Position numbers and translations under genes: made by a program. This document shows, in pieces, positions 10,833 to 61,527 of a DNA stretch of 64,000 nt (within the stretch, counting starts at the first letter, position 1; every line of letters starts with the position of its first letter). The stretch lies in the NCBI RefSeq assembly GCF_058153355.1, contig NZ_CM177019.1; one strand, 5' to 3'. The notes beneath the pieces are model-generated. The model had not been told where the DNA came from and did no database searches. It worked only from the letters and a program-made list of their open reading frames with translations.

Positions 10833-10881
10833 TTACTGGCGTCGCAGCAAGAATAGAGCTGCAACGCCTACACCGGACGAT

Positions 10882-11649
10882 TTAACGACGACACATCTCA
10901 TCAATCATGCATGTGAAATAGTTATGCAGCCATAAAAACGAAGCCGGGATAGCGGTAGAGACTTTAGCCGTGAGAAAACGTTCTGTCGCATCCTGCTTTC
11001 CTTCGCCAGTTATCAGTAGCAAAACTTCGCGGGTATTGAGAATATCCTTCAGGCCTAAGGTGATCCCACGAGTCACGGGGCGACCCGCGGTTTTTAGCAT
11101 CTCATGTTGCTGTGTTCTGGCATCAAGTTGACTGATATGGCAGGCCGGTTGCAGGCTTTCTCCCGGTTCGTTCAGCCCAAGATGACCGTTTTTCCCCAAT
11201 CCGAGAACGCATAAATCCAGACCGCCTTTGCGCGCAATCAGGTTCGTTACCCGTTCGCACTCTGTCTCATTTATCTCTTCGGAGCGAAAGCTGATGAGCT
11301 GGTCTTCACGTAGCCCCAGCGGCTGCACGATATGCTGTTGAAGGAAAGTTTCGCAGGTGCCAGGCATCGTTAATGGCAGATCCACCCATTCGTCGAGCTT
11401 CACGAAGGTGAGCTGGCTGACATCAACCTGCTGCTGGTGGATTTTTTCTACCAGATAATGATACGTCAGTAATGGCGTGGCTCCGGTCGCCAGGCAAATC
11501 ACGGCATCCGGTTTGCTACGGATCACGGCCAATAAATATTCGCTGGCACGTTCACTTAACGCCGTATAGTTTTCAACTTGTTGAAGGGTTTGCACAGGAT
11601 GAAATTCCTTTAGTAAAGAGGCACCACCAGACGCAGTGCCTCGTTCCAT
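10882..11649 (-). CDS. agaI: Galactosamine-6-phosphate deaminase/isomerase AgaI (NagB family)
   Basis: 255 aa NagB-like ORF; ATG overlaps agaD stop. Confidence 0.85.
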   Translation of the reverse strand: MERGTASGGASLLKEFHPVQTLQQVENYTALSERASEYLLAVIRSKPDAVICLATGATPLLTYHYLVEKIHQQQVDVSQLTFVKLDEWVDLPLTMPGTCETFLQQHIVQPLGLREDQLISFRSEEINETECERVTNLIARKGGLDLCVLGLGKNGHLGLNEPGESLQPACHISQLDARTQQHEMLKTAGRPVTRGITLGLKDILNTREVLLLITGEGKQDATERFLTAKVSTAIPASFLWLHNYFTCMIDEMCRR

Positions 11650-16294: not shown

Positions 16295-17428
16295 TCAAAA
16301 CGAAGCTAATTGACCCTGAATCCAGATTTGTTGCACATGCAGTCCGCTATCCAGCGCAACGACGCTGGCGCGTTTGCCCGGTTTAAGTGATCCCAAAACA
16401 CCATCAACACCCAGCATTCGCGCCGGATGCAGCGACGCCATATGGATGGCTTCCGCTGGCGTTACGCCCGTCAGCTCGACCATATTGCGAACAGCCGCAT
16501 CAACAGACAGCGTACTGCCCGCCAGTCCACCGGACGCGGTACGGACAACGCCGTCGTGCATCTGCACCTCTTCACCACATAACGTATATTGACCATCCGG
16601 CATCCCGGCTGCCTGCATCGCGTCGGTGATCAGCACGATTCTCTCTTTCGCACAGCAACAACACAGCGACATCGCCGCCGGATGTACATGATGCCCATCG
16701 GCTATCAATTCCAGCCAGGCGCGCTTGTCCGTTAAACCCGCGCCAACCATTCCCGGTTCGCGGTGATGTAATCCTGTCATCCCGTTATAGCAATGCACCA
16801 GGCCGTCGGCACCAACATCAAATGCGGCGCGGGTTTGTTGCCAGGTTGCTGCGCTATGTCCCAGCATTACCCGCACGTTCTGCTGTTTAAGATGACGAAT
16901 GGCTTGTAACGCGCCCGTTTTTTCCGGTGCCAGCGCCACCACGCGCAAGGTATGCCGTGAAACAGCAATCAATTGATCCAGCTCGGCAATTTCCAGCTCG
17001 CGAAACAGCTCCGGCGGATGTGCGCCTTTATTCTGCGGCGTGAAGTACGGTCCTTCGAGATAACTCCCCAGCACTTGCGCACCAGGTCCACCGCGCTGGC
17101 AGCGTAGAGCAATACGTTCCAGCGCCGCATGAATGGTATTAAGCGGCGCGGTTACGGTAGTCGGCAACCAACTGCCGACACCTTCCCGTGCCTTGTGCAT
17201 TGCCAGCTTGTCGAGCACATCCGGCGCGTCATCCATAACATCAACGCCCGCACCACCGTGTACATGGGTATCGATATAAGCGGGGCAGAGCAGTTCCGCA
17301 TCGCGTTCAGCCACGCCCACTGGAATCGGTTCGATTGCTGCAATTACACCGTCAGCAATATGCAACTGATGATCATCAAGCCAGCCCTCCTCAGTCAGCA
17401 GCCTTCTGGCGCGCAGAACGTGTGTCAT
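16295..17428 (-). CDS. agaA: N-acetylgalactosamine-6-phosphate deacetylase AgaA (full length)
   Basis: ORF 16295-17449; start at MTHVLRARRLL; NagA-like amidohydrolase. Confidence 0.85.
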   Translation of the reverse strand: MTHVLRARRLLTEEGWLDDHQLHIADGVIAAIEPIPVGVAERDAELLCPAYIDTHVHGGAGVDVMDDAPDVLDKLAMHKAREGVGSWLPTTVTAPLNTIHAALERIALRCQRGGPGAQVLGSYLEGPYFTPQNKGAHPPELFRELEIAELDQLIAVSRHTLRVVALAPEKTGALQAIRHLKQQNVRVMLGHSAATWQQTRAAFDVGADGLVHCYNGMTGLHHREPGMVGAGLTDKRAWLELIADGHHVHPAAMSLCCCCAKERIVLITDAMQAAGMPDGQYTLCGEEVQMHDGVVRTASGGLAGSTLSVDAAVRNMVELTGVTPAEAIHMASLHPARMLGVDGVLGSLKPGKRASVVALDSGLHVQQIWIQGQLASF

Positions 17429-17859
17429 ATTCCTTCCTCGACCGGACATTCTTCATGGCAGCGGCCTAACTCGTCCACCAGACTGGTCAGCCCACGGTGT
17501 CCACACTCCAGCGCCTGTACACGGAATTCTTCACCGCTTAACCCTTCGCGCTCCAGCACCATTTCCAGTAACAGTTGCAAATTGGTGCCGGTGATCACTT
17601 CATAGCCCGGTTTTTGCATCGCCAGCGTTGAAGCCACGCGAAACGGTGTGCCGCCCAGCAAATCTGTCAGAAAAACAATGCCGTCTTCACAATCCAGTTT
17701 GGCAATGGCTTCTTCAAGCTGCGATGTAAGCAGCGCAGTGCTTGAGGTTTCCGGAAAATCAATGGCGATAAACTGCGACTGCTCGCCGAGGATTTGCTTC
17801 ATTGCTTTTTCCATGCCGCTGGCAAATCCGCCATGCCCTGTCAAAATAATACTTAACAT
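17425..17859 (-). CDS. agaF: PTS N-acetylgalactosamine EIIA AgaF
   Basis: 144 aa mannose-family IIA. Confidence 0.85.
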   Translation of the reverse strand: MLSIILTGHGGFASGMEKAMKQILGEQSQFIAIDFPETSSTALLTSQLEEAIAKLDCEDGIVFLTDLLGGTPFRVASTLAMQKPGYEVITGTNLQLLLEMVLEREGLSGEEFRVQALECGHRGLTSLVDELGRCHEECPVEEGI

Positions 17860-17876
17860 CTAATACCTCATTGTAT

Positions 17877-18761
17877 TTAAAGGAAATGACAGAATTTACC
17901 GACGATGCCAAGAACCACGGTAACCGCAATCAGGCGCAGCGGGCTCCAGCCGCGGCGTACCAGCCAGAACATGGTCAGGGTGTAGACCAGCGGTAAGAAG
18001 GCAGGCATCAGTTTGTCGATAACATCAGCCTGTAACTTAACCACTGCGTCGCCAGCGGTGATTTCCAGCGTGGTGCTTAAACGAACATAGGTTGCCACCA
18101 GCGCGCCGATTACCGTCATCCCAACGATTGACGCAGCATGGCCGACTTTTTTGGTATTCGCTTTAATGAGTGGAATCGCCGCCACGCCCATGCGGTAAGC
18201 ATAATGCGCCAGACCAAAACGCAGCCCCAGGTGTACCACGTTGAACAGCACAATAAAGACGACTGCGCCAAGAATAGAGCCTTGCAATGCCAGACTGGCA
18301 CCAATCCCGCCACAAATCGGCAGTAACGTTAGCCAGAACATGGCATCGCCAATCCCGCCGAGCGGCGCACCGACGGCAATTTTGGTGCTCTGAATACTGT
18401 TAACGTCCTGCTTAGAACGCTCCATCGCGAGGATAATGCCAATAACAAACGTCACCAGAAATGGATGGGTATTGAAGAAACCCATATGTCCCTTCATGGC
18501 GGGCGCCAGGTCGCGTTTATTAGTGTGGATCTTTTTCAGAGCAGGCAGCAGACCGTACAACCAGCCGGAAGCCTGCATACGCTCGTAGTTAAAAGAAGCT
18601 TGTAACAGCATGGAACGCCAGGCGACGCGGTTGATATCTTTTTTTGTTAGCTCCGCGCCAATGTTCTGATCTTCGTATACGTTTTCATTGACGCCTGTCA
18701 GTAGTGTCTCTTCATTTTCGCTGACGTTCGGCAGGGTGGTTTGATTAGATGCCATCTTCAA
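17877..18761 (-). CDS. agaE: PTS N-acetylgalactosamine EIID AgaE
   Basis: 294 aa mannose-family IID. Confidence 0.85.
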   Translation of the reverse strand: MKMASNQTTLPNVSENEETLLTGVNENVYEDQNIGAELTKKDINRVAWRSMLLQASFNYERMQASGWLYGLLPALKKIHTNKRDLAPAMKGHMGFFNTHPFLVTFVIGIILAMERSKQDVNSIQSTKIAVGAPLGGIGDAMFWLTLLPICGGIGASLALQGSILGAVVFIVLFNVVHLGLRFGLAHYAYRMGVAAIPLIKANTKKVGHAASIVGMTVIGALVATYVRLSTTLEITAGDAVVKLQADVIDKLMPAFLPLVYTLTMFWLVRRGWSPLRLIAVTVVLGIVGKFCHFL

Positions 18762-19524
18762 ATTCCTCTTTCTGTGCCGCAGGTTGAGTCGGTTCAGGAG
18801 ATTTACGCAGCAGGTCGATCAGCGCCATCGCCAGCGCGGCGGCAGCAATAGCCAGCACCGGTAACTTGAGCCAGGCTGCGGCAACGAAGCCCAGGATGAA
18901 GTAGGGGATATAGACGTTTTTCATCATGATTTTCAGCAGCACGGCAAAACCGATTGCTGGCATGATGCCGCCCGCGACGCCAAGGCCGTCGATTAACCGT
19001 TGCGGCAGGACATCAATGATGGTTTTTGCATGCTCCGCGCCGAAGTAGATAGGCAGGAAAGCGCAGAGAAAATAGAACGTGCCGAGTGCCAGCAATGCCA
19101 GATAGTTCACGCGTTCAATGCCGCGAGTATCGGCGTTCTCCGCCATCCGGTCGCAGCGGGACATCACGCCAGACATCACCGAGAACAGGAAGGTAATCCC
19201 CATCTGTACTGCGACAGCGAAAGGTACGGCGACACCGACCGCGACATCCGGTTTCACGCCAGTAGTAATGGCAAACGCCGTGCCGACGATAGTTCCGATA
19301 ATCACGTTAGGCGGCTGTGCGCCCGCCAGCGGTGCCAGCCCCATCCACACCAGTTCCAGCGTACCGCCGGTTAAAATACCGGTATGCAGATCGCCAAGCA
19401 CCAACCCAACTAACGGGCCGAGGACCACCGGGCGGTGCATATGGGTCAAGCCGTTAAACATATCCAGGCCAGCGATAAAGGCGATAATGCCCAACGCAAA
19501 TGCCTGCAACAGACTGATTTCCAT
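18745..19524 (-). CDS. agaW: PTS N-acetylgalactosamine EIIC AgaW (full length)
   Basis: 259 aa mannose-family IIC, not truncated. Confidence 0.85.
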   Translation of the reverse strand: MEISLLQAFALGIIAFIAGLDMFNGLTHMHRPVVLGPLVGLVLGDLHTGILTGGTLELVWMGLAPLAGAQPPNVIIGTIVGTAFAITTGVKPDVAVGVAVPFAVAVQMGITFLFSVMSGVMSRCDRMAENADTRGIERVNYLALLALGTFYFLCAFLPIYFGAEHAKTIIDVLPQRLIDGLGVAGGIMPAIGFAVLLKIMMKNVYIPYFILGFVAAAWLKLPVLAIAAAALAMALIDLLRKSPEPTQPAAQKEEFEDGI

Positions 19525-22369: not shown

Positions 22370-22901
22370 GAAATGGTGCCCGTAGCTCAACACGGATGTG
22401 TTCGGCGGGCATTGTTCACTGTCCTTTTACAGCCTGTTTTCTGCTCAAATTAGAAGCTTCAGCAAAGGTAATGCAAATGCATTATTAACAGCAGAAAGCG
22501 CCAGAACCAACGAAAAAAGAGAGCATGTTTCCCATTTTGCGAGGCGCTTTCCAAATCACCCGCTCAGTCCCCTCGCGTTGCAGTGCTAAAAGCACTATTT
22601 TGCAAATTTGTGACCTTCTTCACTCTCCCAAAAGGCGGTGATCTCACGGTGGGGATCCACTTTCTGCTTTCGCTTTTCTGCCGTTAGCACTCGCTATTTC
22701 GGCATCTCTTCTTTTCACTTTTTCAGTTTGTCATTTTCATTTGCGGTCAACCGAAAGTTCTGGAGTCGATTTTTCCAGGTTTCAACGCCGTTGTCGCGTT
22801 CACAAATTCACTTCTTTTCTTCTGATGTAATGCATTCAAAAGAAAATGAAAGCTGCAAAATGCAAGAATGCAACTAAATACTTTTTCAGGGAGCGATAAA
22901 C

Positions 22902-23672
22902 ATGCTAGATAGCCTAAGACGCCGCGAACAAATCATTGATTTGTTATGTGCCCAGGGAAGCGTACGCGTTGAGCCGCTCAGCATCCATTTTGGTGTCTCA
23001 TCGGTCACGATCCGCAATGACTTACGGTATCTGGAGCAAAAAGGTTGCGTCATGCGTTCCTATGGCGGTGCCGTGTTGAATCAACACTTTGCGCTCGACA
23101 GACCCTTGCAGGATAAAGATCGCCTTAATCGTGATGTTAAAGTGCGAATTGCCGAAAAAGCGGCCAGTTTTGTCAAAGATGGCGATACATTAATTATCGA
23201 TTCTGGTTCAACGACCACGCTAATTCCCGCTTCGCTCAAAGGGCGTCGGGATTTAGTCGTCATGACGAATGCCTTGAATATCGCCTGGGAAATGGCCAGT
23301 TTTGAACGGGTGGATGTTATGATCCTTGGTGGAAATGTTCGCCAGAGCGTCTACTCCCTGTATGGGCCTTCGGCAGAACAACAACTCCGGCAGTATCGCT
23401 TTGATAAGCTGTTTCTGGGCGTGGACGGCTTTTGCCTTGAAGCAGGGATTACCACGCCACATCCGGGTGAGGCACATCTGAACCAGGTGATGTGCCAGGT
23501 TGCGCAGGAAATTACTGTTGTCGCGGACTCCAGTAAATTTGGCCGCAAAAGCTTCTGTATGATCGGTGAAGTGAGCGAGATAGATCGACTGATTACCGAT
23601 AGCGGTATTCCGGAGAATTACAAAGCAGCATTAACGCAAATGGGTGTGGAAGTTGTGATTGCTGATGAGTGA
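22902..23672 (+). CDS. DeoR-family transcriptional regulator, AgaR paralogue (accessory)
   Basis: 256 aa; N-terminus RREQIIDLLCAQGSVRVEPLSIHFGVSSVTIRNDLRYLEQKG parallels AgaR; good RBS (GGGAG). Confidence 0.85.
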   Translation: MLDSLRRREQIIDLLCAQGSVRVEPLSIHFGVSSVTIRNDLRYLEQKGCVMRSYGGAVLNQHFALDRPLQDKDRLNRDVKVRIAEKAASFVKDGDTLIIDSGSTTTLIPASLKGRRDLVVMTNALNIAWEMASFERVDVMILGGNVRQSVYSLYGPSAEQQLRQYRFDKLFLGVDGFCLEAGITTPHPGEAHLNQVMCQVAQEITVVADSSKFGRKSFCMIGEVSEIDRLITDSGIPENYKAALTQMGVEVVIADE

Positions 23673-23676
23673 GAAA

Positions 23677-23708
23677 ATGTGGCTGGAGATAAACGTCGCC
23701 AGCCACAT
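23677..23708. terminator. Hairpin between convergent DeoR regulator and ROK kinase genes
   Basis: tgtggctgg...ccagccaca inverted repeat. Confidence 0.4.
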
Positions 23709-23716
23709 TACGTTAT

Positions 23717-24628
23717 TCAGGTTGCATGTTCGATTTGCAGCAACGCCGCGCCTCGTACACCGCTCGTTGCTCCGTGAATGGCAGAAAATACGCGCGCAGG
23801 TTCCAGTCCAGGAAGAAGATAACGCGTCATAGCTTTCGGCAATAACGTGTAAATTTCTTTGAAGTTAGACACACCGCCGCCAAGAACAAATGCATCTACG
23901 TCGAGAATATGCTGCAACTGTGCCAGCGTACAACCAACCATATCTATCCAGGCGCTAATGGTGGTGATGGCACTGGGAACGCCACGTTGATGATTTTCTA
24001 ACAATGTCTCCATAGTGATTTGCTCATCGCTGAAATGCTTATGTAACCAGAGCAAGCCAGGACCGGACTGGTAGCGTTCCAGGCACCCTTGCAAACCGCA
24101 GCCGCATTGTAATTCAGGCAGGTTATAGCGCCGCGTAAATGTCGCCGGGAGCGGTAAATGGCCAAACTCGCAGGCCATACGGTTACGGCCACGGTACAAC
24201 TGGCCATCAATAACTAATCCCCCGCCCATACCCGTGCCGATAATCGCGCCAAAGATCCGACTATATTGACGAGCTTGATCGGTATGCGCTTCTGATAGGG
24301 CGAAGCAGCAGCAGTCATTATCCATTATTACCGGGCGGTTAAGGCGATTTGCCAGATCGGTTAACACCTGGCGTCCGGTCAGGCAGGGAACGTTAGAAGA
24401 CAACAGTTTACCGGTGTGCCGATCCATAACGCCGGGCATCCCGATACCTATTTTGCCTTGCGTACCCGTGGCCCAGTCAGCGGTATCAATCAGAGACACA
24501 AATGTGGATAGAAAAAGCGCGTAATCCTGAACAGGCGTAGCTACCCGCTTGCGCCAGCAAATTTGTAAATCCTGATCAAAGGCGACTATCTCTGTTTTGG
24601 TTCCACCAATATCAACACCGTAAAACAT
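23717..24628 (-). CDS. ROK-family sugar kinase, NagK-like
   Basis: 303 aa; DIGGTK N-terminus and CGCG..C zinc motif as in N-acetylglucosamine kinase. Confidence 0.85.
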   Translation of the reverse strand: MFYGVDIGGTKTEIVAFDQDLQICWRKRVATPVQDYALFLSTFVSLIDTADWATGTQGKIGIGMPGVMDRHTGKLLSSNVPCLTGRQVLTDLANRLNRPVIMDNDCCCFALSEAHTDQARQYSRIFGAIIGTGMGGGLVIDGQLYRGRNRMACEFGHLPLPATFTRRYNLPELQCGCGLQGCLERYQSGPGLLWLHKHFSDEQITMETLLENHQRGVPSAITTISAWIDMVGCTLAQLQHILDVDAFVLGGGVSNFKEIYTLLPKAMTRYLLPGLEPARVFSAIHGATSGVRGAALLQIEHAT

Positions 24629-24646
24629 CGCTCATCTCCTTTGGTT

Positions 24647-25903
24647 TCACAGCACAACCAGGGTATTTTCCTTGCGAGCGCGTTCGGCGGCAAAGACCAT
24701 TAAATGACTTTCGAGCGATTCATCTGGTCCTGAAAGGATCATCGCTCGATCGTCAGCCATCACGGCATGGATAAAGCTGTCCATCAGATAGTAATCACCA
24801 CCACCGTGCCCTCCCATTTGGGTGTGAGTGCCTGCGTTTTTCTCTTCAACGGTGTAAATAGTTTCCTGGTCGGTGAGAAAATCAAAACACCGAATGGTGT
24901 TGCCATCGCCTTCCAGATAACCTTTCGAACCGAAAACTCGGGTTTTGCGATCCTCCATTTTCGTAAAGGCTGTCATTGTAAAAGTGACGCTCTGCTGATG
25001 CGCAAACTGCATGTTTACCACTTGATGATCAACAACATCGTTATCGCAGCAATAAACACAGCGACCATAGGGGCCGTCACGCAGGGCCTGACGAATATTC
25101 TCTTCAGTAGGATTTGGTGTTAACACGTGGCGAAAGTGAAACGTACATTTATGGGCTTCGCCAGCATAAATTTTGCATGCGGACCACGGGCAGGTCGCTT
25201 CTGCCTGGCAATCGAGACAGCGTTCGGCTGCGCCTTCAGGTTGGTTTTGTTTTACAAAATGGTTGAGCCCGCCAAATGAGCTAACGGTTTTACAGTTGTC
25301 TCCCATGATGTAGCGGATCCAGTCCAGATCGTGGCAGGACTTTTGTAACAACATAAATGATGATTCAGCCTCGTTGCGCCAGTTACCACGCACAAAAGAG
25401 TGTGCCTGGTGCCAGTAACCGACGGGTTCGAGATGCTGCATACTGATAATGTCGCCAATGATGCCGCTATCGAGTAAGAATTTGAGTTTTTGTGTATATC
25501 GGGTGTAACGAAGAACGTGTGCGACGGCTAATAAGACATTATTGCGTTTGACGGCATCAATGATAATGCGGCAATCGTGCTCTGTTGGCGCGAGCGGTTT
25601 TTCCAACAGAATGTGGTAACCGAGATCGGCAAAAGCGACGGCCGGATCTCTATGCATATTGTCTTGCGTACAAATAAGTACAGCATCAGCCATTTTTGGC
25701 CGAGCAGCAGCCTCTTTCCAGTTGCTAAAAATATTATCTGTCGGGATCGTATGCCGGGACACAACTTGCTCGCGGTAAGCCTCTCTAGGTTCAGCAACAC
25801 CTACCACTTGCATTCTGTCCGGATGCTCAAGGGCATAGCGGGAATATATTTCTCCACGTGCGCCTGCACCTATTACTAAAACAGTGACTTTATTTTTACT
25901 CAT
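24647..25903 (-). CDS. Gfo/Idh/MocA-family NAD(P)-dependent oxidoreductase with Cys-rich insert
   Basis: 418 aa; Rossmann N-terminus (VLVIGAGARG), EKP motif, Cys cluster CLDCQAEATCPWSACK...CVYCC. Confidence 0.8.
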   Translation of the reverse strand: MSKNKVTVLVIGAGARGEIYSRYALEHPDRMQVVGVAEPREAYREQVVSRHTIPTDNIFSNWKEAAARPKMADAVLICTQDNMHRDPAVAFADLGYHILLEKPLAPTEHDCRIIIDAVKRNNVLLAVAHVLRYTRYTQKLKFLLDSGIIGDIISMQHLEPVGYWHQAHSFVRGNWRNEAESSFMLLQKSCHDLDWIRYIMGDNCKTVSSFGGLNHFVKQNQPEGAAERCLDCQAEATCPWSACKIYAGEAHKCTFHFRHVLTPNPTEENIRQALRDGPYGRCVYCCDNDVVDHQVVNMQFAHQQSVTFTMTAFTKMEDRKTRVFGSKGYLEGDGNTIRCFDFLTDQETIYTVEEKNAGTHTQMGGHGGGDYYLMDSFIHAVMADDRAMILSGPDESLESHLMVFAAERARKENTLVVL

Positions 25904-25945
25904 ATAAAGAAATACCTTTCTGATAAATTCATCTTAATTGCTACG

Positions 25946-26704
25946 TTATAAATTACGAAAACTAACAAGATGAAATCCGTGTTTTTCAATCGCATATTTG
26001 AGTGACGGTGTAGTCAGAACCGTAAGTTCTTCCAGCCGTTGATAGCAGTAACTGCTCGACATTAAGTGGTTATCTACGAATCCAGGGTGACACATAATTT
26101 CCAGCGATTTTTCATCACGTTTTATGGCGCTATCGAGGAGTGATAAAAAAAAGTCTTCTGAAATATTATTATCGTAGAAATTACTGCTGAATCCCTCACT
26201 ACTTTTGGCATCCAGCGAATCGATTTTTTTCTCTCGCAGAACAGAATGGTCTATACGTAATGGTAAATTTTTCTCACGCGCGAACCGCGCGACAACGGGA
26301 TAAACCTGCGGGATCATATGAACGCTGTGATGGCTGTCTAAATGGGTGGGCTCCCGTTTAAATACATCAATAAAACGTTGATATTGAGAACTCAGTTCCT
26401 GTTCAATTTCACCCGTGTTTAATTGCCCTTGCTCCGCGACATCCCAGATCCATTTACCTAATTGGCCTGCGCGTACCAGCGAAGGCATATCCGTTAAGGC
26501 GGCGCCATAGCTCAAAACAAAATGTAACCCGACGCCGAGCTGTGGGGTTTCGGCACTTAAAGAGGCAGCATGATCAATTGCCGGAGCATTCATCATCGCA
26601 GTTGTTGAGCGAACGACACCATTTCGTACTGCCTCGATAATTCCATAATTAATACCTTTACTTAGTCCAAAGTCATCCGCATTCACAATTAATAAGCGTT
26701 GCAT
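25946..26704 (-). CDS. YdjC-family carbohydrate deacetylase (ChbG-like)
   Basis: 252 aa; NADDFG and HLDSHHxVH motifs. Confidence 0.85.
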   Translation of the reverse strand: MQRLLIVNADDFGLSKGINYGIIEAVRNGVVRSTTAMMNAPAIDHAASLSAETPQLGVGLHFVLSYGAALTDMPSLVRAGQLGKWIWDVAEQGQLNTGEIEQELSSQYQRFIDVFKREPTHLDSHHSVHMIPQVYPVVARFAREKNLPLRIDHSVLREKKIDSLDAKSSEGFSSNFYDNNISEDFFLSLLDSAIKRDEKSLEIMCHPGFVDNHLMSSSYCYQRLEELTVLTTPSLKYAIEKHGFHLVSFRNL

Positions 26705-26716
26705 AAGGCGTCCTTG

Positions 26717-28069
26717 TTATTGATGAGATTGGGTAAGTTCAGCAATGGTGCTGGAAAATTGAGGCAGATGTTTTTTATGGGCAATGATCAGTTCACGTAC
26801 TAATTTTTCAGCGTCGTTATCCGAGGTCATTAGCGGGTTAAGGCACAGAGCCAGCAGCGTATCGTTATAGTTACCACTTATTGCCGCCCGGGCTGCCGCA
26901 ATCTCAAAACATTTGATTGAATGAATGAGCCCCAGTACATTTTCGTCAAAATGAGTGAGACGCGGGTGGGGGGTAACACCGTTATTCCCCAGAATGCAGG
27001 TCATTTCAACGGTCCAGTCTTCAGGGATATTTTTTACACTGCCCTTGTGTGGAATATTAACGTAGTGTTCTGTTTGCGTGTCATTATAAATTGCATTAAT
27101 AACGGCACAGGCTGCATCTGAATAATACGCACCACCACGCAGATCCAGTTCTTCAGGTTTTGTATTTAGTTCTGGGTTCTTATACAGCTCAAATAATTTT
27201 CTCTCTAATGCCTGCACGACTTGTGCACGAACGCCATTTTTATAAAATTCCCCCATCTCAATAGCGAGCATTTCTTTATGTTTAAAATAGTAACGTAAGT
27301 AAGCACAGGGCAGGAGATTAAGTGCCCGAATTAAATTAGGATTGAAGGTTAAACTGTCAATATTTTTGACGGTACTTCCTTCAAGCAAACCTTCAACGAC
27401 GCCATCGAGCAATTCAGCAAAACGTGATTGTCCATTGACCCATACGTCTTTAAGAAAGACCATATGATTTAAGCCAAATATGTCTATTGAAAGATCATCG
27501 TCCGCGCCAAGTTTTAGGGCATTGCGAACGAAGCTCTTCATCCCAATAGGGACATTACAGACACCGATAAACCGTTTAAATTGGGTATGGCGGTACACGG
27601 CTTCAGTAACCATCCCGGCAGGATTGGTAAAATTAATAATCCAGGCATCAGGGCAAAGTTCCTCAACATCTTTGATAATATCAAAAACTACTGGAATGGT
27701 TCGTAACCCGTTGAATAAACCGCCCGCGCCATTGGTTTCTTGCCCGAGATATCCCTGACTTAGTGGAATCAACTCATCCATTTCCCGAGCTTTTAATTGC
27801 CCGACCCGAAATTGTGTGGTGACAAAGTGCGCGCCCTGTAATGCAGCGCGACGGTCAAGTGTTTTCACTATTTTTAACGGAATGCCAGCTTTTATCACCA
27901 TCCGCTGACAAAGGTCGAAAATAATGTCCAGCTTTTCTTTGCCTTCTTCAATATCAACTAACCATAATTCACTGACCGGTAATTCATCGTAGCGTTTTAT
28001 GAATCCTTCAAGGAGTTCTGGTGTATAGCTACTGCCACCGCCAATAGTAACGATTTTTAAGTTTTTCAT
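26717..28069 (-). CDS. Glycoside hydrolase family 4 6-phospho-beta-glucosidase (ChbF-like)
   Basis: 450 aa; strong similarity to ChbF by recall (IGGGSSYTPELLEGFIKRY, NFTNPAGMVTEA). Confidence 0.9.
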   Translation of the reverse strand: MKNLKIVTIGGGSSYTPELLEGFIKRYDELPVSELWLVDIEEGKEKLDIIFDLCQRMVIKAGIPLKIVKTLDRRAALQGAHFVTTQFRVGQLKAREMDELIPLSQGYLGQETNGAGGLFNGLRTIPVVFDIIKDVEELCPDAWIINFTNPAGMVTEAVYRHTQFKRFIGVCNVPIGMKSFVRNALKLGADDDLSIDIFGLNHMVFLKDVWVNGQSRFAELLDGVVEGLLEGSTVKNIDSLTFNPNLIRALNLLPCAYLRYYFKHKEMLAIEMGEFYKNGVRAQVVQALERKLFELYKNPELNTKPEELDLRGGAYYSDAACAVINAIYNDTQTEHYVNIPHKGSVKNIPEDWTVEMTCILGNNGVTPHPRLTHFDENVLGLIHSIKCFEIAAARAAISGNYNDTLLALCLNPLMTSDNDAEKLVRELIIAHKKHLPQFSSTIAELTQSHQ

Positions 28070-28145
28070 GTTACTTCCATACTCAATATTAAATTGACTT
28101 GTGATGCCATGGTTTATCTAAACGCTGGCATGATGAAGCGTGCTA

Positions 28146-29506
28146 TTAAAACTTTAATGCATTGGCAATGTCTTCTTCGCTTTCTTGTTTAATTATTTCA
28201 ACTTGTGCTTTGTTTGAGATAATGACAAAGGGAAGATAAACCATTGTGGCAACACCTAAGTTAAAGAGCGCCAGGAGTAATCCAGCAATGCTTCCATTCG
28301 AGCTAAAGAACGCATTGAGTCCAGGAGGCATGGTCCAGGGGGCAATATTTGTTGATGGCGGAATAATACCCATGTTATAGGCGATTAAGGTAATCCCGGC
28401 GAGAATGGGTTGAATCATCACAAACGGGATTAACATAATGGGGTTCATAATGATCGGCAAACCAAATAAAATAGGTTCGTTGATATTAAAGATACCAGAA
28501 GGTAACGCTAATTTAGCAACCTGACGATAATCTTCCCGGCGTGACGCAATGAAAATGGCGAAAATGAGTCCCAGCGTTGCCCCTGTTCCACCGAGGAACA
28601 CGTAAGCGTCAAGCATTGGCCCGGTCCAGAAATGGAAGGTTTTTCCTGCTTCCAGTGCCGCTTGTACTGAACCATATTGTGTATAGGTGGCGATATTCTC
28701 CAGTCCCCACGGACCCAACGTGCTGCTTTGCAACGCGGTTAATACTAAGCCGCCGTGGATACCAAAGAACCATAACAGGGAATTAAAGACAACGAATGTC
28801 CAGCCAACAATACCGCTCATTGACGTTAATGGCGTAGCCAGTGAGGTGATAATGACCTGATGGAAATTGGTGCCATATATCGACAATATCCCAGACAAAC
28901 TACCCATAATTAACAGGATGATAAACCCGGGCACCATTGCTGAGAATGAGCGTGATACTGCGGCCGGAACACTCGCGGGCAACCGAATCACCCAGTTGCG
29001 GCGGATAATAAAAGCGAAAATTTCCGCTACAACTAATCCAATGATCATACCAGACAGAATATTGGCGCCGCCTAACCAGTTTGCACCAATGACATTAGCG
29101 GTTTCTCCTGCCTTGAAGGGGGTGACAGTCATAAACGCTGCGACAGAGAGTAAGCCAACGGATAACGAATCAACTTTCCGTTCTTCGGCCAACCCCATCC
29201 CAATAAAAAAGGGGGTCATGAGTGACATAATGCCCAGCGTGCCATGATAAGCACTGTCACCGACGACGGTGAAGGCGCTTAAGGTTTTTATGGTCGATGG
29301 TTCCAGTCGGACGCCTAATGAATAAAAAAGGAGCCTTCGCCAAAATCTAAAAAAACGCTATTAATGAGGACAAATAACGTACCGGCTAACGTTAATGGCA
29401 TCATACGGATAAAACCGTTTTTTATTGCATTGACGTGAGGTTGTTTCCCTAATTTAACTGCAAAAGGAAGAATGAGTTTTTCAAGTAACGCCATCACTCC
29501 GGGCAT
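28146..29506 (-). pseudogene. PTS lactose/cellobiose-family EIIC (ChbC-like) split by a frameshift
   Basis: N-terminal 63 aa (29506-29315, ...[12 protein letters not shown]) and C-terminal 360 aa (from 29228) are in different frames; the second frame reads FYSLGVRLE... upstream to the junction. Confidence 0.75.
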
Positions 29507-29575
29507 AAAAATATCCTTATATACCGATTAATGTATCACTGCGACTTTGGTTTTATTAATATCCTGTTGCTATGG

Positions 29576-29893
29576 TTACTTTTGCTCTTTTTTTATTATG
29601 GCGATAGCTGATTTTAGAACACCTAAGCCATCAATTTTTCCATATAACATTGAATCAATAACTTCCACTGGCTTTCCTGGTAATAAGCTTTGGATCTCTG
29701 ATTGCATGTAAGCAATTTGAGGTCCCAATAATATAACATCGGCTTCCGGCCCTTTCTCTGCGGCAACAGATTCGGAGAATGCTTCGATAATTACTGGCAC
29801 ATCATATTTTATCGCCTGCACTTTCATTTTTGACACCAGCAGTGATGTTGACATTCCCGCTGAACAAAATAAGTATATTTTTTTCTTTTCCAT
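29576..29893 (-). CDS. PTS lactose/cellobiose-family EIIB (ChbB-like)
   Basis: ORF 29576-30109; start at [20 protein letters not shown] (phospho-Cys motif), ~105 aa. Confidence 0.85.
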
Positions 29894-30278
29894 AGGGACT
29901 CCAGATATATTACGTAATAATATATTTGTCATGCCATGAATGGCATATGAGGCGACTTTAATTAAAAAGGCACGGATGTTTATATTGATTTCCTGAATGT
30001 CGTCTTTTGGTATTAATCTCAAAAATTTCAGGAGCCATTGAATAATCTGGTTTATAGGATTGAATGTCAAGAGAGTGAAATTGTGGGCGTGTTGTAATAA
30101 AAATAGCACGGCTTTCGGTAGGTTTCTTTTTTAGCGGAATGAAAAGTACAGGCAAAATGGTAATTGAATAAATTAACGTTTTTTCAATAGATTACGTTTT
30201 TTCCTGCCTACAGGAATGAAAAAAACAACAATCTAAAAATACTTTAGATATGTGAGAGTTATCACTTACTTTTCGTGG

Positions 30279-30311
30279 GGAAAACGGGGAAACACAGTCT
30301 CCCCGTTTTCC
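30279..30311 (-). terminator. Stem-loop immediately downstream of garD
   Basis: ggaaaacgggga / tccccgttttcc perfect 12 bp inverted repeat. Confidence 0.4.
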
Positions 30312-30326
30312 GTTCATGCAAGGCCG

Positions 30327-31898
30327 TCAAGTCACCGGTGCCGGGTTAAACACCGCCAGTTGGTTATGCAGCCCCCATTGATCCGAGAAGGTTTTCTTCT
30401 TCCCGCTGGCGACGTCGAGAATAAAGTGGAACAGCTTCCAGCCCACTTCTTCTATGGTTTCTTCGCCGGTGGCGATGGTGCCTGCGTTGATATCCATTAA
30501 GTCAAACCAACGGTTTGCCAGTTCGGTGCGGGTTGCCATTTTAATGACGGGTACCGCCATCAGGCCGTACGGCGTACCACGGCCGGTCGTAAACACTTGC
30601 ACGGTGATACCCGAAGCCACCTGTTGCGTGCCACAGACAAAATCGCTGGCTGGCGTCGCGGCGTAAATTAATCCGCGTTTAGTCGGGCGTTGACCGGGCG
30701 ATAGCACTTCAACAATTGCGCTTTTACCCGATTTAGCAATGGAGCCGAGAGCCTTCTCCACTACGTTTGCCAGACCGCCTTTCTTGTTGCCCGGAGAAGG
30801 GTTGGCGCTGCGGTCGGTTTTTCCCATATTGAGATAGTTATCGTACCACTCCATCTCTTCCAGCAGACGCTTGCCGACCTCTTCGTTCACTGCGCGCGGC
30901 GTCAGCAGATGGATCGCGTCACGCACTTCTGTGACTTCTGAAAACATCACCGTTGCGCCGCAGCGCACCAGTAGATCAGACGCATACCCAACCGCCGGGT
31001 TTGCCGTTACGCCAGAAAACGCATCGCTGCCACCGCATTGCATGCCGACAACCAGTTCTGAAGCCGGACAGGTTTCTCGCTGACGTTGATTCAGTTTTTG
31101 TAGATGGCGTTCGGCGACCTGCAAAATATCCTCGACCATGGACTGAAAACCGACATGCTTTTCATCCTGCAAACTGACAATGCTGGCGCTTTCTACTGGA
31201 ATAGCTTGCACATCATCCGTTCCAGTCAGCAGGCGCTCAGGCTGCAACTTTTCACAACCCAGACCAATCACCATTACTTCGCCGCCAAAGTTAGGGTTCA
31301 GCGAAATATTGTGAATGGTACGGATAGGCACAACTGCCGCCGGTGCGTTAATCGCCACGCCACAACCGTACAAATGATTCAGCCCCACCACGCCATCGAC
31401 GTTCGGGTATTTCGGTAGCAGATCGCGTTCAATGATTTTTACTACGTAGTCCACCACGCCTGCCACACAGTGGACGCTGGTGGTGATGCCGAGCAGGTTT
31501 TTGGTGCCCACGCTGCCATCAGCATTGCGATAGCCCTCAAAGGTGTATCCTTCCAGCGGCGGTAAGGGTTCCGGGACTTTGGTTGCCAGTGGCAGCGTGT
31601 GTAACGGCGGCGCTTCCGGTAGTACAACCATTGATTCGTCGATCCAGCTTCCGCGTGGGATTGCGCGCACGGCGTAACCAATCACTTCGCCATAACGAAT
31701 AATTTCACCATTAGCCGGAATGTCCAGCAATGCGACTTTATGCCCCTGGGGAATATGTTCAATTAATTCCAGCCCATCCGGAAAACGCGTTCCTGCTTTC
31801 AGGCCATTATCATTAACAATAATTGCCACATTATCTGTGTCGTGAACTTTTATATAAAACGCAGTTGGCGTTTCTTGTCTGATTTCGATGTTGGCCAT
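30327..31898 (-). CDS. garD: Galactarate dehydratase GarD
   Basis: 523 aa, SAF + D-galactarate dehydratase domains. Confidence 0.9.
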
Positions 31899-36588: not shown

Positions 36589-36965
<377 letters not shown>

Positions 36966-36974
36966 ATTTTAACG

Positions 36975-37010
36975 AAAACCCGCCAGCGTAAACTGGCGGG
37001 TTTTTGCTTT
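36975..37010 (+). terminator. Rho-independent terminator of rnpB
   Basis: cccgccagcgtaaactggcggg hairpin followed by TTTTTGCTTTT. Confidence 0.85.
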
Positions 37011-37029
37011 TGAGAAGGGTGGTCGGAAA

Positions 37030-37125
37030 GATGAACGTCTTATCTGGCCTACAAAACAACGAAAATTCAATATATTGCACAGAGGCAATGTAGGCCTGAT
37101 AAGCGTAGCGCCTCAGGCAATTTTG
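37030..37125. repeat. REP elements
   Basis: cttatctggcctac ... gtaggcctgataagcg palindromic units. Confidence 0.75.
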
Positions 37126-37237
37126 TGTTTATCATCAGTCTCGGATCTGCTTCGGCAAGCTTTTACTTTTGGTGCAGACGGAAAGATGAACGAATATCTA
37201 AGCTATTAATAATAGACTTTGCAAGAAATCATTACAT

Positions 37238-38407
37238 TTATATTTCATTTAAAAGATCGTAATCATACGTATATTCTTTGCTAATAAAACGACACTCGTT
37301 GAAGCTAAATTCATCGTCTGAAAAGGAATTGTCAACAGAATCTCTCTCTTCCTCCAGGCTATTATCTGAAAGCAAGTCGTTTGAGTTAGTATAATCCAGG
37401 TTGTAATCGACAGTATAATTAATTTCTGGATCGGTTTGGTAATCATTTTTTTTGACGCAATCATATTCTTCAATAATTTTGTCGATATAATCATATGCTT
37501 TTTCTAATGAGAAGTTTTTCATCTCTGGTAATTTAACTTTGCTCAAATAATTATTAATTTTTGAGGGGTTTTTATATATGCTTTTTGTTAATTCTTTTTC
37601 TAATTTGTCTGTTATATTTGCTGTTGGTATGGATTTTATAATCGCATATCTCATGATTTTTAATTGATCTTCGGTTAAATCTCCAAGCTCATTTAAACAA
37701 CTTTCGACAAAGTTGATTTTTTCTCTGGAATAATCATCGCTGATACTTGTTAACGCTGGGGTGATTTTTAATAAAGAATTCCATGAGATAGTACCATTGT
37801 GTGTCGAACGCATAAAATTTATATTGTACATATTGGTTTTAGTAAACTTTGTTGCAAACAATGTAAAGGGATCTAAAGTCGCGTAAGCCATATGTTTATT
37901 TGAAAAATCATAACCAGTTAAATCGACGTTATGCAAGTCCAGATAGGATAAATCTATTACGTCGCCTGCTCCAGAGCTAAAGATTACATTTAGTCTTCTG
38001 ATTTCATTATGAATTTCCTTTAATGAACAATTTATGTTCATGATGTCTGTTGAAATTTTTTTGTTATTTAACGGTTCACAAATTATAAGTTCGCAAGTAT
38101 TGTCTGATCGTTGCGTTATTTGGGCATTATAACCTAAAAAGTCTATGCGAAGAGACGAGTCATTATAAAGTATTACATTTTTTAAGTATGCTAATTCTTG
38201 TTGAAAATCACCATCGATAATACATGTCCCACCAGGTTGCAACGCGCTGATTAACGTGACCATTTGTTTAGAAGTCTGTATTAGTTTTACTACACCTGGT
38301 GCTAGTGCTTTGAGGTCATTTATTATGGGGTTTTCAGGAAGGTCATTCATTTTTATACATACTAAATTATTACCTAAGTCATTACCTATTGATGAAACCG
38401 GGAACAT
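37238..38407 (-). CDS. yhaC: Uncharacterized protein YhaC (AT-rich; repeat-containing)
   Basis: 389 aa, N/D/Y-rich acidic C-terminus; low-GC gene. Confidence 0.75.
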   Translation of the reverse strand: MFPVSSIGNDLGNNLVCIKMNDLPENPIINDLKALAPGVVKLIQTSKQMVTLISALQPGGTCIIDGDFQQELAYLKNVILYNDSSLRIDFLGYNAQITQRSDNTCELIICEPLNNKKISTDIMNINCSLKEIHNEIRRLNVIFSSGAGDVIDLSYLDLHNVDLTGYDFSNKHMAYATLDPFTLFATKFTKTNMYNINFMRSTHNGTISWNSLLKITPALTSISDDYSREKINFVESCLNELGDLTEDQLKIMRYAIIKSIPTANITDKLEKELTKSIYKNPSKINNYLSKVKLPEMKNFSLEKAYDYIDKIIEEYDCVKKNDYQTDPEINYTVDYNLDYTNSNDLLSDNSLEEERDSVDNSFSDDEFSFNECRFISKEYTYDYDLLNEI

Positions 38408-38428
38408 TATTTTATCCTTTTTAAATAA

Positions 38429-38998
38429 TCAATGAGAATCATGATTAAAATGATCTGGTGAAAAAAAGAGAATTTGCCAACAATCTGAAACATTGTCAGT
38501 TTTATTAAAATGATTAAATTCCGTTAAGATAACTTCTTTTTGCGTGAACTTTGCGCAAAACTTAAAAATTGTCTCCTTGATACACTCCAGATCTTTTCTA
38601 TTGATGGCTGAACAAGTACATTTTTCGCCAAAAGGTGAAAATGTGCCTACATCTAAAGTTTGTATTATATAATCATCATTTACTCCTGTAGAAATATCTA
38701 TGATGAATGGACTTCTATTTTCCGGTTGGATTCGGATCATTACAGAAGAAACATCACCTTTATAGACATTCAATGCAGTAATCGCAGATAATATTCTCCG
38801 CAATTCATTGCTTATGCTGTAAATTTCATTAACGTCATTTGTCGATATAATCTCGGCAAATTTTATTTTTACCTTCCAATAATCAATGTTTCTATTATAA
38901 GTGTTAACAGTTTCGTACATTGGTGGTATCGAAGGGGGTAAAAAATGTGAAACCGAATAACCTTTCATTGATGCCTGCCTTGTCATCATGACAAACAA
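38429..38998 (-). CDS. yhaB: Uncharacterized protein YhaB
   Basis: 189 aa ORF directly downstream of yhaC, AT-rich; start uncertain. Confidence 0.65.
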   Translation of the reverse strand: MFVMMTRQASMKGYSVSHFLPPSIPPMYETVNTYNRNIDYWKVKIKFAEIISTNDVNEIYSISNELRRILSAITALNVYKGDVSSVMIRIQPENRSPFIIDISTGVNDDYIIQTLDVGTFSPFGEKCTCSAINRKDLECIKETIFKFCAKFTQKEVILTEFNHFNKTDNVSDCWQILFFSPDHFNHDSH

Positions 38999-39206
38999 TA
39001 ATCAATGCTTATTTTCCTTGCACGGTTCGCTCACAACTATCAAAAAACGCTCAATTACCCGGCATTACAGTCAACGAAGCAAAATTCTGTGGTCTACAAC
39101 GATGTAAAGCACAACGAAAATCCTCCTTGTTCTCTTATTCTGATCGTATAGCGATGAACATCAATTATTCGTTTTGTGATCATCAACACAAAATGCTATT
39201 TAGTAA

Positions 39207-39581
39207 CTATGGTGACAGTAGAAACGAGGGGAAACGATTGCATTCACAAAATGACGTCCTGTAAGAAGGGTGAAAGTTGATGTTAATCAATTGTTCGAGA
39301 TGATCAATATCTGTATTCGAAATTTTAAAACATTGATAAAATAAATGTTTGCCCTCCAACAAATAGCGAGAAAAAATGTGACGTGCCGCATTATTTATCG
39401 CTGAAAATGATTTATTTATAATAAAATTTGATAACTTGCTCATAAAATTTAACTCAAAATTTGCCTGGTAATTATCCGCTAATTGCTTGAAATATGGTCG
39501 CAGCTGCTTTTTTTTATTAACCACATAACGAATGATGTTATCGCCATAAAATATGGTTATCCCTGTCATTTTTTTTGACAA
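39207..39581 (-). CDS. tdcR: Putative tdc operon regulator TdcR (start uncertain)
   Basis: AT-rich ORF divergent from tdcA, position as recalled for tdcR. Confidence 0.5.
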   Translation of the reverse strand: MSKKMTGITIFYGDNIIRYVVNKKKQLRPYFKQLADNYQANFELNFMSKLSNFIINKSFSAINNAARHIFSRYLLEGKHLFYQCFKISNTDIDHLEQLININFHPSYRTSFCECNRFPSFLLSP

Positions 39582-39757
39582 AAATCAGGGTTTATGCTGA
39601 TTTATATACTTTAACTTATTGATATATAAGAATATTTAATTGATACAGTGATGTCCAAAAAAGTATTGAAAGTTAATTTGTGAGTGGTCGCACATATCCT
39701 GTTCATTTCATTTTGATACACTTCATGCCGCCAATGAGGTTATTAACGTAGGTAGTT

Positions 39758-60816: not shown

Positions 60817-61527
60817 GTGAAATGCATAAGAGTTCTATTTGTTCTGGTTTGTATTATTTTATTTTGGTCAATGCCAGGACAAGCAAATATGACGGTCTAT
60901 CCTATGTCTGTATCTATAAACAGTCAGGGAGAAGGAAGTGTTCGTGTAATATCGAAAACGGATGAAGTACAATATATAAAGGCAACAGTATTTCGTATCG
61001 ATAATCCATCAACACCACAAGAAAAAGAAATAGAAGTAACTTCAGGCGATGCAAACCAACTAGTGGTGATACCGCCCAAATTTGCTTTGCCTGGCGGTAG
61101 TAGCAAAACCGTACGTTTTGTGGCAATGGAACCTGAGCAAAAAGAAAAAAACTATCGGGTTAAATTTGCAGCTGTACCCAGCATTGATGATGCAACAGCT
61201 AATAAAAAAGATCTCTCCATGCAATTAACGGTTAACTTAATTTGGGGGATTGTTGTCAGCGTGCCACCTCAGCAGCCTGTGGCAAAGTTAGATATAAATG
61301 CCGATAAAAAGTTAATCAATAATGGCAATCAACGTCTTAAGATATTAACCATTGACTATTGTAAAAAAAGTGGCTCTGCGGAATGCAGAACACAGACCGT
61401 AAATAAAAACATTTTCCCTGGTCAGGAAAGAAGTTTAGAAGGCATATCTGGCTACGATAAAATCGTTGTCAAATATAATAACTGGATCACCAAGGATAAT
61501 GGCGAGTTTGAACTGGCGGTTCATTAA
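60817..61527 (+). CDS. Periplasmic fimbrial assembly chaperone, CS1/CFA-I (class 5) type, putative
   Basis: 236 aa, GTG start, signal peptide, low-GC; first gene of chaperone / major subunit / usher order. Confidence 0.6.
   Translation: MKCIRVLFVLVCIILFWSMPGQANMTVYPMSVSINSQGEGSVRVISKTDEVQYIKATVFRIDNPSTPQEKEIEVTSGDANQLVVIPPKFALPGGSSKTVRFVAMEPEQKEKNYRVKFAAVPSIDDATANKKDLSMQLTVNLIWGIVVSVPPQQPVAKLDINADKKLINNGNQRLKILTIDYCKKSGSAECRTQTVNKNIFPGQERSLEGISGYDKIVVKYNNWITKDNGEFELAVH

Follow-up and report, generated by a model that had tools for sequence, protein, structure and literature searches.

A divergent allele of the yhaB-yhaC pair in the AT-rich islet between rnpB and the tdc operon of Escherichia coli

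What are the two AT-rich genes that lie between rnpB and tdcR in the 64,000-nucleotide stretch of contig NZ_CM177019.1 (assembly GCF_058153355.1) analysed here, and do they constitute a new kind of system? An earlier sequence-only reading of this stretch, which we call the window and always take at its full length, had singled out the pair as a probably H-NS-silenced module of foreign origin. We find that the locus is an ordinary AT-rich, probably H-NS-silenced islet and not a new kind of system. Its genes are yhaC and yhaB, an operon already catalogued and listed as “Unknown” in the literature (PMC12218254), so the description of the pair as functionally uncharacterised stands. Taken as one whole, the proposal that the window carries a rare-lineage allele of the E. 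coli-specific, AT-rich tdcR-yhaB-yhaC islet, together with the regulatory picture set out below, is in our judgment probably correct, though by no means secure. The gene pair and its “unknown” status were known before this work; what is new is the measured divergence of the allele with the reason for it, the finding that the proteins are orphans even among billions of sequences, the pentapeptide register and C-terminal motif of YhaC, and the fact that the FNR and CRP boxes are conserved. The two genes are among those of E. coli that have persistently gone without an assigned function, and for these two the analysis narrows the options.

Synteny and full-length homology carry the identification. 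The window comes from an Escherichia coli chromosome with the gene order garPLRK, rnpB, yhaC, yhaB, tdcR, tdcABCDEFG, and the succession rnpB-yhaC-yhaB-tdcR-tdcA is conserved, with the pair in the same slot as the K-12 genes (b3120-b3121; families NF007262 and PF27690). YhaC aligns over residues 1-389 with positions 1-395 of the 395-position NF007262 profile (E=8.9e-172, 571.4 bits), and a protein 99% identical to the YhaB of the window (P0071) carries, as do all 26 homologs, a precomputed PF27690 assignment. The likeness to the K-12 pair is collinear over the full length of the proteins and extends to the operon layout, the pentapeptide register, the C-terminal motif and the upstream FNR and CRP boxes; the differences are that the YhaC of the window is 6 residues shorter in its tail and that the spacer between rnpB and yhaC lacks a 113-bp unit repeated 3.5 times. 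The score of 571.4 bits is below the 765-bit equivalog cutoff of NF007262, and because of this shortfall the Prokaryotic Genome Annotation Pipeline labels window-type yhaB and yhaC “hypothetical protein” (18 of 18 complete genomes). Pangenome analyses may thus split one locus into two “genes”, the divergent allele being the one labelled “hypothetical”.

The layout of the locus (Table 1) is much as the sequence-only reading had it. Two co-directional open reading frames (ORFs), of 389 and 189 codons, were indeed found on the minus strand, although the shorter one reaches 189 codons only from an upstream TTG. The downstream ATG at 38968 is the start annotated by RefSeq in the near-identical strain R32_14_1F and is preceded by AAGGCAGG, a better Shine-Dalgarno sequence than that of the TTG. 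The yhaB stop is followed after 21 nt by yhaC, which has a ribosome-binding site of its own (AAGGA); since the two share a strand and are separated by so short a gap, they are a two-gene operon, transcribed yhaB then yhaC. That rnpB and repetitive extragenic palindromic (REP) elements lie on one side and tdcR on the other was confirmed by Rfam, by REP motif matches and by NF008507, respectively. The low GC content also held up when computed, with one correction. The GC profile falls from 0.52-0.61 in garK and rnpB to 0.30-0.36 across roughly 37000-39750, and the individual values for yhaC, yhaB and tdcR are 0.314, 0.317 and 0.325, with third-position GC (GC3) of 0.29, 0.26 and 0.34. Against the 41 long ORFs of the window (median GC 0.52, GC3 0.56), these three genes have GC z-scores of about -3.5 to -3.7. 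Hence yhaC and yhaB are clearly distinguishable from the genes of the window, but tdcR is not one of the GC-richer neighbours with which they were originally contrasted: together with the tdcR-tdcA spacer, it is itself inside the AT-rich block.

Table 1. Coordinates of features in and around the yhaB-yhaC islet, in window positions
Feature	Position	Strand	Basis or remark
rnpB (RNase P RNA)	36589..36965	+	Rfam RF00010, 318.6 bits
rnpB intrinsic terminator	36979..37005	+	hairpin and T-run, read from the sequence; single-copy in the window
AT-rich block (yhaC, yhaB, tdcR, tdcR-tdcA spacer)	37000..39750 (approx.)		GC 0.32; presumed H-NS-bound region
Inverted REP pair, like a bacterial interspersed mosaic element	37039..37103		motif matches; between rnpB and the yhaC 3′ end
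yhaC, divergent allele, 389 aa	37238..38407	-	ORF, family profile, comparison with K-12
YhaC acidic tail, D/E/N/Y-rich, residues 321-389	37241..37447	-	isoelectric point (pI) 4.05; 52% D/E/N/Y
YhaC ten tandem pentapeptide repeats, residues 151-200	37808..37957	-	centres L L L F M L L F M F
yhaB, divergent allele, 179 aa from ATG	38429..38968	-	alternative TTG start at 38998 gives 189 aa
CRP-like box TGTGATCATCAACACA	39175..39190		about 215 bp upstream of the yhaB ATG
tdcR, 78 aa	39207..39443	-	NCBIfam NF008507, E=1.8e-43; immediately upstream of yhaB
FNR consensus TTGAT-N4-ATCAA, perfect, inside tdcR	39277..39290		only one in the 64-kb window

Both ORFs are real coding genes, a conclusion that follows from ORF length far above chance and from the ratio of nonsynonymous to synonymous divergence (dN/dS). 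The longest stop-free run is 396 codons; in 500 shuffles that kept the base composition, the longest run averaged 84 codons and never exceeded 152, and the probability of meeting no stop across yhaC is 9e-15. From the comparison with K-12, dN/dS is 0.30 for yhaC (dS 0.66, Fisher p 3e-16) and 0.24 for yhaB (dS 0.52, Fisher p 2e-9); overall the pair gives 0.24-0.33 at dS 0.5-0.66, and the deep pairwise comparisons span 0.22-0.45. Moreover, the reading frames stay open across a nucleotide divergence of about 22%, the indel is a multiple of three, and in the window-type (W-type) genomes inspected in detail, both ORFs stand as coding sequences without a pseudogene flag. Open frames and low dN/dS over so deep a divergence require long-term purifying selection in both lineages, and, judged by dN/dS, the two proteins have been under purifying, though relaxed, selection in each.

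How far has the allele diverged, and why? At the protein level, YhaC is 65% identical to its K-12 counterpart over its full length and YhaB 78%. At the nucleotide level, the identity profile has its left edge at rnpB, which is 100% conserved between haplotypes; from just past rnpB to the tdcR 3′ end, identity to K-12 is about 78%, rising to about 92-93% over most of tdcR and the upstream spacer, with 88% nearest tdcA, and standing at 94-100% in garK, rnpB and tdcA. The neighbouring genes provide the yardstick. Synonymous divergence from K-12 is 0.125 for garK and 0.084 for tdcA, and across 27 neighbouring genes it ranges from 0.008 to 0.29, typically about 0.12, while dN for yhaB and yhaC is 11-18 times the highest dN found among the neighbours. 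The 50-kb neighbourhood of the window is itself only 96-97.6% identical to a K-12-like genome and 98.7% identical to its closest relative. The best match of the lpoA segment among complete RefSeq E. coli genomes is 98.2%, with most genomes at about 95% and none at or above 99%, and for the cyuA-yhaK segment only 12 records reach at least 99% identity. To judge from these matches, the source strain would seem to come from an E. coli lineage that is divergent and has been little sampled. In a census of complete E. coli genomes, 5,426 in all, the window-type allele occurs in 18, and K-12-like yhaC alleles, with 76-79% nucleotide identity to that of the window, occur in about 4,300. In ordinary E. 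coli strains, too, the rate of yhaC exceeds that of its flanks, by a factor of 3-4. The most economical explanation is that the window allele is native to a rare divergent lineage and that the locus evolves 4-5 times faster than its neighbours at synonymous and more than 10 times faster at nonsynonymous positions. An ancient balanced polymorphism or an introgressed cassette was considered and set aside: the whole 50 kb is diverged (dS about 0.12), and the diverged flanks are common to the W-type strains.

The same census bears on the possibility that the pair is a decaying remnant, a formerly functional, lineage-specific or foreign cassette without a present role that persists by drift while H-NS keeps it silent and is gradually eroding. 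In about 1,060 of the 5,426 genomes (about 20%), yhaC is reduced to a remnant of 58 bp, several strains have frameshifted copies of yhaB or yhaC, and one strain has lost everything from yhaC through tdcG and has an integrase and IS26 beside rnpB. The elevated dN noted above fits erosion as well, as does a dN/dS of 0.97 between two close K-type alleles, and the K-12 genes are silent and H-NS-bound, with a nonsense mutation in yhaC that arose, and was tolerated, in a laboratory-evolved K-12 strain (PMC7907822). What erosion does not account for is that dN/dS stays at 0.24-0.33 over a dS of 0.5-0.66 with the frames open, that some 4,300 genomes keep a full-length yhaC-like sequence, and that conservation extends to the yhaB leader and the regulatory boxes. 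On this balance we consider decay unlikely, although it deserves to be kept in mind. The losses, the frameshifts and the K-12 nonsense mutation show that E. coli can do without the pair, which many lineages are in the course of losing.

The proposal that the module was horizontally acquired fared less well than the description of its composition. The atypical base composition is real, and acquisition is on that ground plausible, but no donor species, integrase or attachment (att) repeat was found for the yhaB-yhaC locus of the window, and no copy was found on a phage or a genuine plasmid. The pair occupies one fixed chromosomal position, where only alleles or deletions occur and never alternative cassettes, and it diverges together with its host lineage as vertically inherited genes do. 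It shares with the H-NS-silenced xenogeneic islets, or “promoter islands”, of K-12 a low GC content, dense promoter-like and H-NS-motif-like sequence and, for K-12, published H-NS occupancy over both yhaC and tdcA/tdcR (PMC3661553), but it differs from such islets in the lack of any detected mobility gene, att repeat or donor lineage. Two specific candidates for a trace of integration were rejected. Integration at rnpB would have to contend with the fact that no duplicated rnpB 3′ end flanks the block, and in the strain with an integrase beside rnpB no att-like repeat was found. An 18-bp inverted repeat around yhaBC (37120-37137 and 39177-39194) is attributed to chance; its left arm is missing in K-type haplotypes, and shuffled sequence gives 1.3 such pairs.

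Are the proteins related to anything outside this locus? Significant matches to YhaC and YhaB are lacking in Pfam, NCBIfam (apart from YhaC's own family), PHROGs, PADLOC and PDB, where only sub-threshold hits appear, and PADLOC-DB 2.0 holds zero families at E<=1 for YhaC, YhaB and TdcR. Two of the weak hits, Pox_VLTF3 in Pfam (E=0.0015, under the cutoff) and a methylenetetrahydrofolate dehydrogenase in PDB (E=0.0056), were treated as noise. No enzymatic family matches either protein, and Pfam and NCBIfam detect no nuclease, NTPase, TIR or other effector domain in them. In a word-index search of 5.8 billion proteins, every match to YhaB or YhaC was from E. coli or Shigella. An exhaustive search of 1.84 billion representative proteins with a hidden Markov model (HMM) of YhaC returned its own cluster, fragments and chimeras of that cluster, and pentapeptide-repeat proteins; the last, which have 5-23 Pfam-matched stretches each, align only to profile positions 140-215. 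Apparent alternative architectures (P0103, P0106 and P0135) were rejected as assembly chimeras or error-ridden ORFs. A species scan with one genome per bacterial species returned two loci, in metagenome-assembled genomes named “Collinsella” and “Bacteroides”, and both turned out to be wrongly binned contigs from E. coli, to which they are 93-99.5% identical. By these searches, YhaB and YhaC are true orphans, restricted to E. coli and Shigella. The absence of a recognisable enzymatic motif, as surmised from the letters of the sequence, is thus borne out, and these searches gave no clear homology to characterised housekeeping proteins.

The middle of YhaC, described earlier simply as repetitive, turns out to be ten consecutive pentapeptides in a register that is the same in the window and K-12 alleles, and matches to bona fide pentapeptide-repeat proteins, with E-values down to 3.5e-9, are restricted to this segment. 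With L, F or M at the centre of each unit, the segment follows the repeat pattern of PF00805 proteins (consensus A(D/N)LXX, with a hydrophobic L/F in the middle) such as Np275/Np276 (PDB 2j8k), Qnr/MfpA and HetL, from which YhaC differs in having only about 10 units and some 340 further residues that match nothing. If it folds like other members of the family, it would form a beta-helix of about 2.5 turns. On either side of it, weak predictions suggest an alpha/beta N-terminal region and a helical region at about residues 205-320, and the tail, whose acidic, N/D/Y/E-rich character was read correctly at the outset, is predicted to be disordered. At its very end, the motif YTYDYDLLN-x-I is the same in every allele, whereas the tail is otherwise variable; the sliding-window dN/dS reaches its peak, 0.64, over the tail. 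Sequence prediction finds neither a transmembrane segment nor a signal peptide in YhaC or YhaB.

A pentapeptide module inside a larger protein invites comparison with effectors of type III secretion systems (T3SS), in which such repeats recur. In NleL/EspX7, for one, a pentapeptide beta-helix comes after an N-terminal part that is unstructured (PMC3013003). The corresponding explanation would make YhaC a cryptic substrate of a T3SS, either E. coli type III secretion system 2 (ETT2) or that of the locus of enterocyte effacement (LEE), with YhaB as a small chaperone-like partner. Several features fit it. A repeat module set within a longer protein whose N-terminus has little structure, and a location in AT-rich, H-NS-type islets of Enterobacteriaceae, are shared with PipB/PipB2, SopA, NleL/EspX7 and the E. 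coli backbone protein YjcF, and the locus is in addition H-NS-bound, a backbone islet, E. coli-restricted and fast-evolving. The first 30 residues of YhaC are polar (50% S/T/N/P/I), there is no signal peptide, a small and mildly acidic ORF (yhaB) lies directly upstream, and the extreme C-terminus is invariant. We take that C-terminus to be loosely like the C-terminal LFNEF motif of PipB2. PipB (NF011744) is also the sole non-self NCBIfam match of YhaC. That match, however, covers only residues 151-202 (E=0.014) and scores 14.6 bits against a cutoff of 274, and the suggested kinship with YjcF and EspX proteins was rejected when hhalign gave a probability of 5% and aligned nothing but the repeat. 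YhaC has no detectable homology to these effectors outside the repeat and no catalytic domain comparable to the HECT-like one of NleL, for YhaB there is no match to a chaperone family or to anything else, and intact copies are kept in K-12, which has no functional T3SS. All in all, secretion as a T3SS substrate strikes us as improbable.

For YhaB itself there is less to say. It is a 20-kDa, mildly acidic protein (pI 5.7) with four conserved cysteines in the arrangement C-x-C-x10-C-x8-C. A 2-kb E. coli contig (P0016) encodes a 547-residue in-frame YhaB-YhaC fusion, the product of a deletion that spans the yhaB 3′ end and the spacer; the fusion is compatible with YhaB and YhaC working together but does not prove it.

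An operon of two genes that is AT-rich, fast-evolving and polymorphic for presence and absence, and that adjoins a stable-RNA gene where one strain has an integrase, might also be a conflict system: an anti-phage defence, a toxin-antitoxin or an immunity pair made variable by an arms race. In favour of this, pentapeptide-repeat proteins are in some cases found alongside TIR domains or in defence systems (P0138; the HalA model), and a study of 92 E. coli genomes from wastewater listed yhaC near the top of its positively selected genes (PMC9110714), a claim that concerns selection at the level of sites. In our comparisons no gene-wide dN/dS exceeds 1: the deep pairwise values given above and a tail that peaks at 0.64 led us to reject gene-wide positive selection. 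A 1.5-kb contig (P0007) encodes a recombinant YhaC with a K/D-type N-terminal half and a window-type C-terminal half, which shows intragenic recombination between deeply diverged yhaC alleles at the level of sequence, and recombinant alleles of this sort may inflate the signals of site models for positive selection. Moreover, the empty PADLOC result, the lack of anything significant in PHROGs and of any effector domain, the absence from phages and genuine plasmids, and a single fixed position that holds no alternative cassettes are all contrary to what the conflict idea calls for, and we regard it as very improbable.

The regulatory picture draws on published work with K-12. A 706-bp “promoter island” within K-12 yhaC is H-NS-bound in all chromatin immunoprecipitation (ChIP)-chip studies, a second island lies at tdcA/tdcR, and both are in predicted foreign DNA (PMC3661553). 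As for the silencing by H-NS that had been suggested, then, binding over yhaC is documented for the K-12 allele, and for the window allele the corresponding indication is H-NS-motif-like sites, 15 of them at up to 2 mismatches against 7.8 expected from composition. The perfect FNR consensus inside tdcR is one occurrence where 0.12 would be expected in the window, and a K-12 FNR ChIP target that was assigned to yhaB is likewise inside tdcR (PMC1802558). The CRP-like box corresponds to a CRP site mapped upstream of K-12 yhaB (PMC12871828) and, with 1 mismatch, is conserved across five haplotypes, the deletion form among them, against a background of variable sequence next to it; the yhaB leader is conserved along with both boxes. 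From the conserved FNR and CRP sites and the K-12 H-NS data, we infer that the operon is silenced by H-NS in laboratory conditions and poised for FNR- and CRP-dependent expression in anaerobic, catabolite-derepressed, gut-like conditions, the same signals as for the adjacent tdc operon. The practical lesson is that the boxes indicate where a phenotype should be sought: without oxygen, without glucose and with H-NS relieved.

How, then, might the pair work? In the explanation that we favour, YhaB and YhaC would be soluble, non-enzymatic proteins under relaxed purifying selection, kept off by H-NS under laboratory conditions and poised to be switched on by FNR and CRP in anaerobic, catabolite-derepressed, gut-like conditions. 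With more doubt than confidence, we suggest that YhaC might act by binding and not by catalysis, as a scaffold or a decoy that uses one face of the beta-helix and the acidic tail. YhaB, as a 20-kDa cysteine-containing partner, would probably act with YhaC, though our confidence in this is low. A bolder and quite unlikely extension is that the two form an E. coli-restricted, fast-evolving interaction module, either a cryptic secreted effector with its partner or a decoy for a host or phage protein, in which the short beta-helix and an acidic tail with YTYDYDLLN-x-I as docking motif would come into play solely once FNR and CRP prevail over H-NS in the anaerobic gut. If true, this would establish a new class of function among E. 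coli genes that still have none assigned.

Several points weigh against this explanation. The pentapeptide segment scores 12.1 bits against PF00805 (E=0.15), short of the gathering threshold of 20.2, and with ten pentapeptides it is far shorter than the characterised pentapeptide-repeat proteins. Structure prediction, which had been proposed as a route to a fold search, was run with AlphaFold2 on alignments of 16 and 9 sequences and gave predicted local distance difference test (pLDDT) values of 34 and 39, too low to support such a search; the YhaC model (mean 33.7) is uninformative and places no strands at residues 150-200, and the YhaB model (39) is unusable. The beta-helix and the domain layout of YhaC thus come from sequence only. 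The H-NS, FNR and CRP data concern the K-12 allele in every case. Finally, frequent loss and raised dN could equally be the marks of pseudogenes-to-be.

Some smaller observations were made at the edges of the islet. In K-12-type strains, a 113-bp unit comprising the last ~23 nt of rnpB and its terminator is tandemly repeated 3.5 times (L002 2044-2436), and at 36966-37238 the window has one copy followed by the REP pair; this arrangement downstream of rnpB accounts for the length difference of about 340 bp between the haplotypes. The pair consists of an exact REP match at 37039-37052 (+) and a match with 1 mismatch at 37090-37103 (-), and the 64-kb window as a whole has 15 REP-type matches where 0.45 are expected. 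At the other edge, tdcR encodes 78 aa in the window and 72 aa in K-12, with dN/dS of about 1 between the two (13 nonsynonymous and 3 synonymous differences), and in the W-type strain N96 it carries a frameshift; on these grounds it is doubtful that tdcR is a well-constrained protein-coding regulator.

Elsewhere in the window, the difference from K-12 is in gene content. Between agaR and garD, a cluster of about 7.9 kb (22415-30327, GC 0.42-0.49) takes the place of prlF-yhaV, the toxin-antitoxin pair of K-12; its genes code for a second repressor of the AgaR type, a ROK protein, a Gfo/Idh/MocA oxidoreductase, ChbG, a 6-phospho-beta-glucosidase and phosphotransferase system components IIC and IIB, and it is also present in R32_14_1F. 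The yraHIJK fimbrial operon, which in K-12 separates rsmI from agaI, is absent from both the window (~10514-10925) and R32_14_1F, where agaI follows rsmI directly. Another low-GC ORF unlike its neighbours, of 218 aa (GC 0.39, GC3 0.32), lies at 60871-61527 on the plus strand. The aga (N-acetylgalactosamine) cluster is intact in the nagA/agaF/agaE/agaW region at 16853-19149, as against a deletion in the K-12-like genome that leaves truncated pseudogenes.

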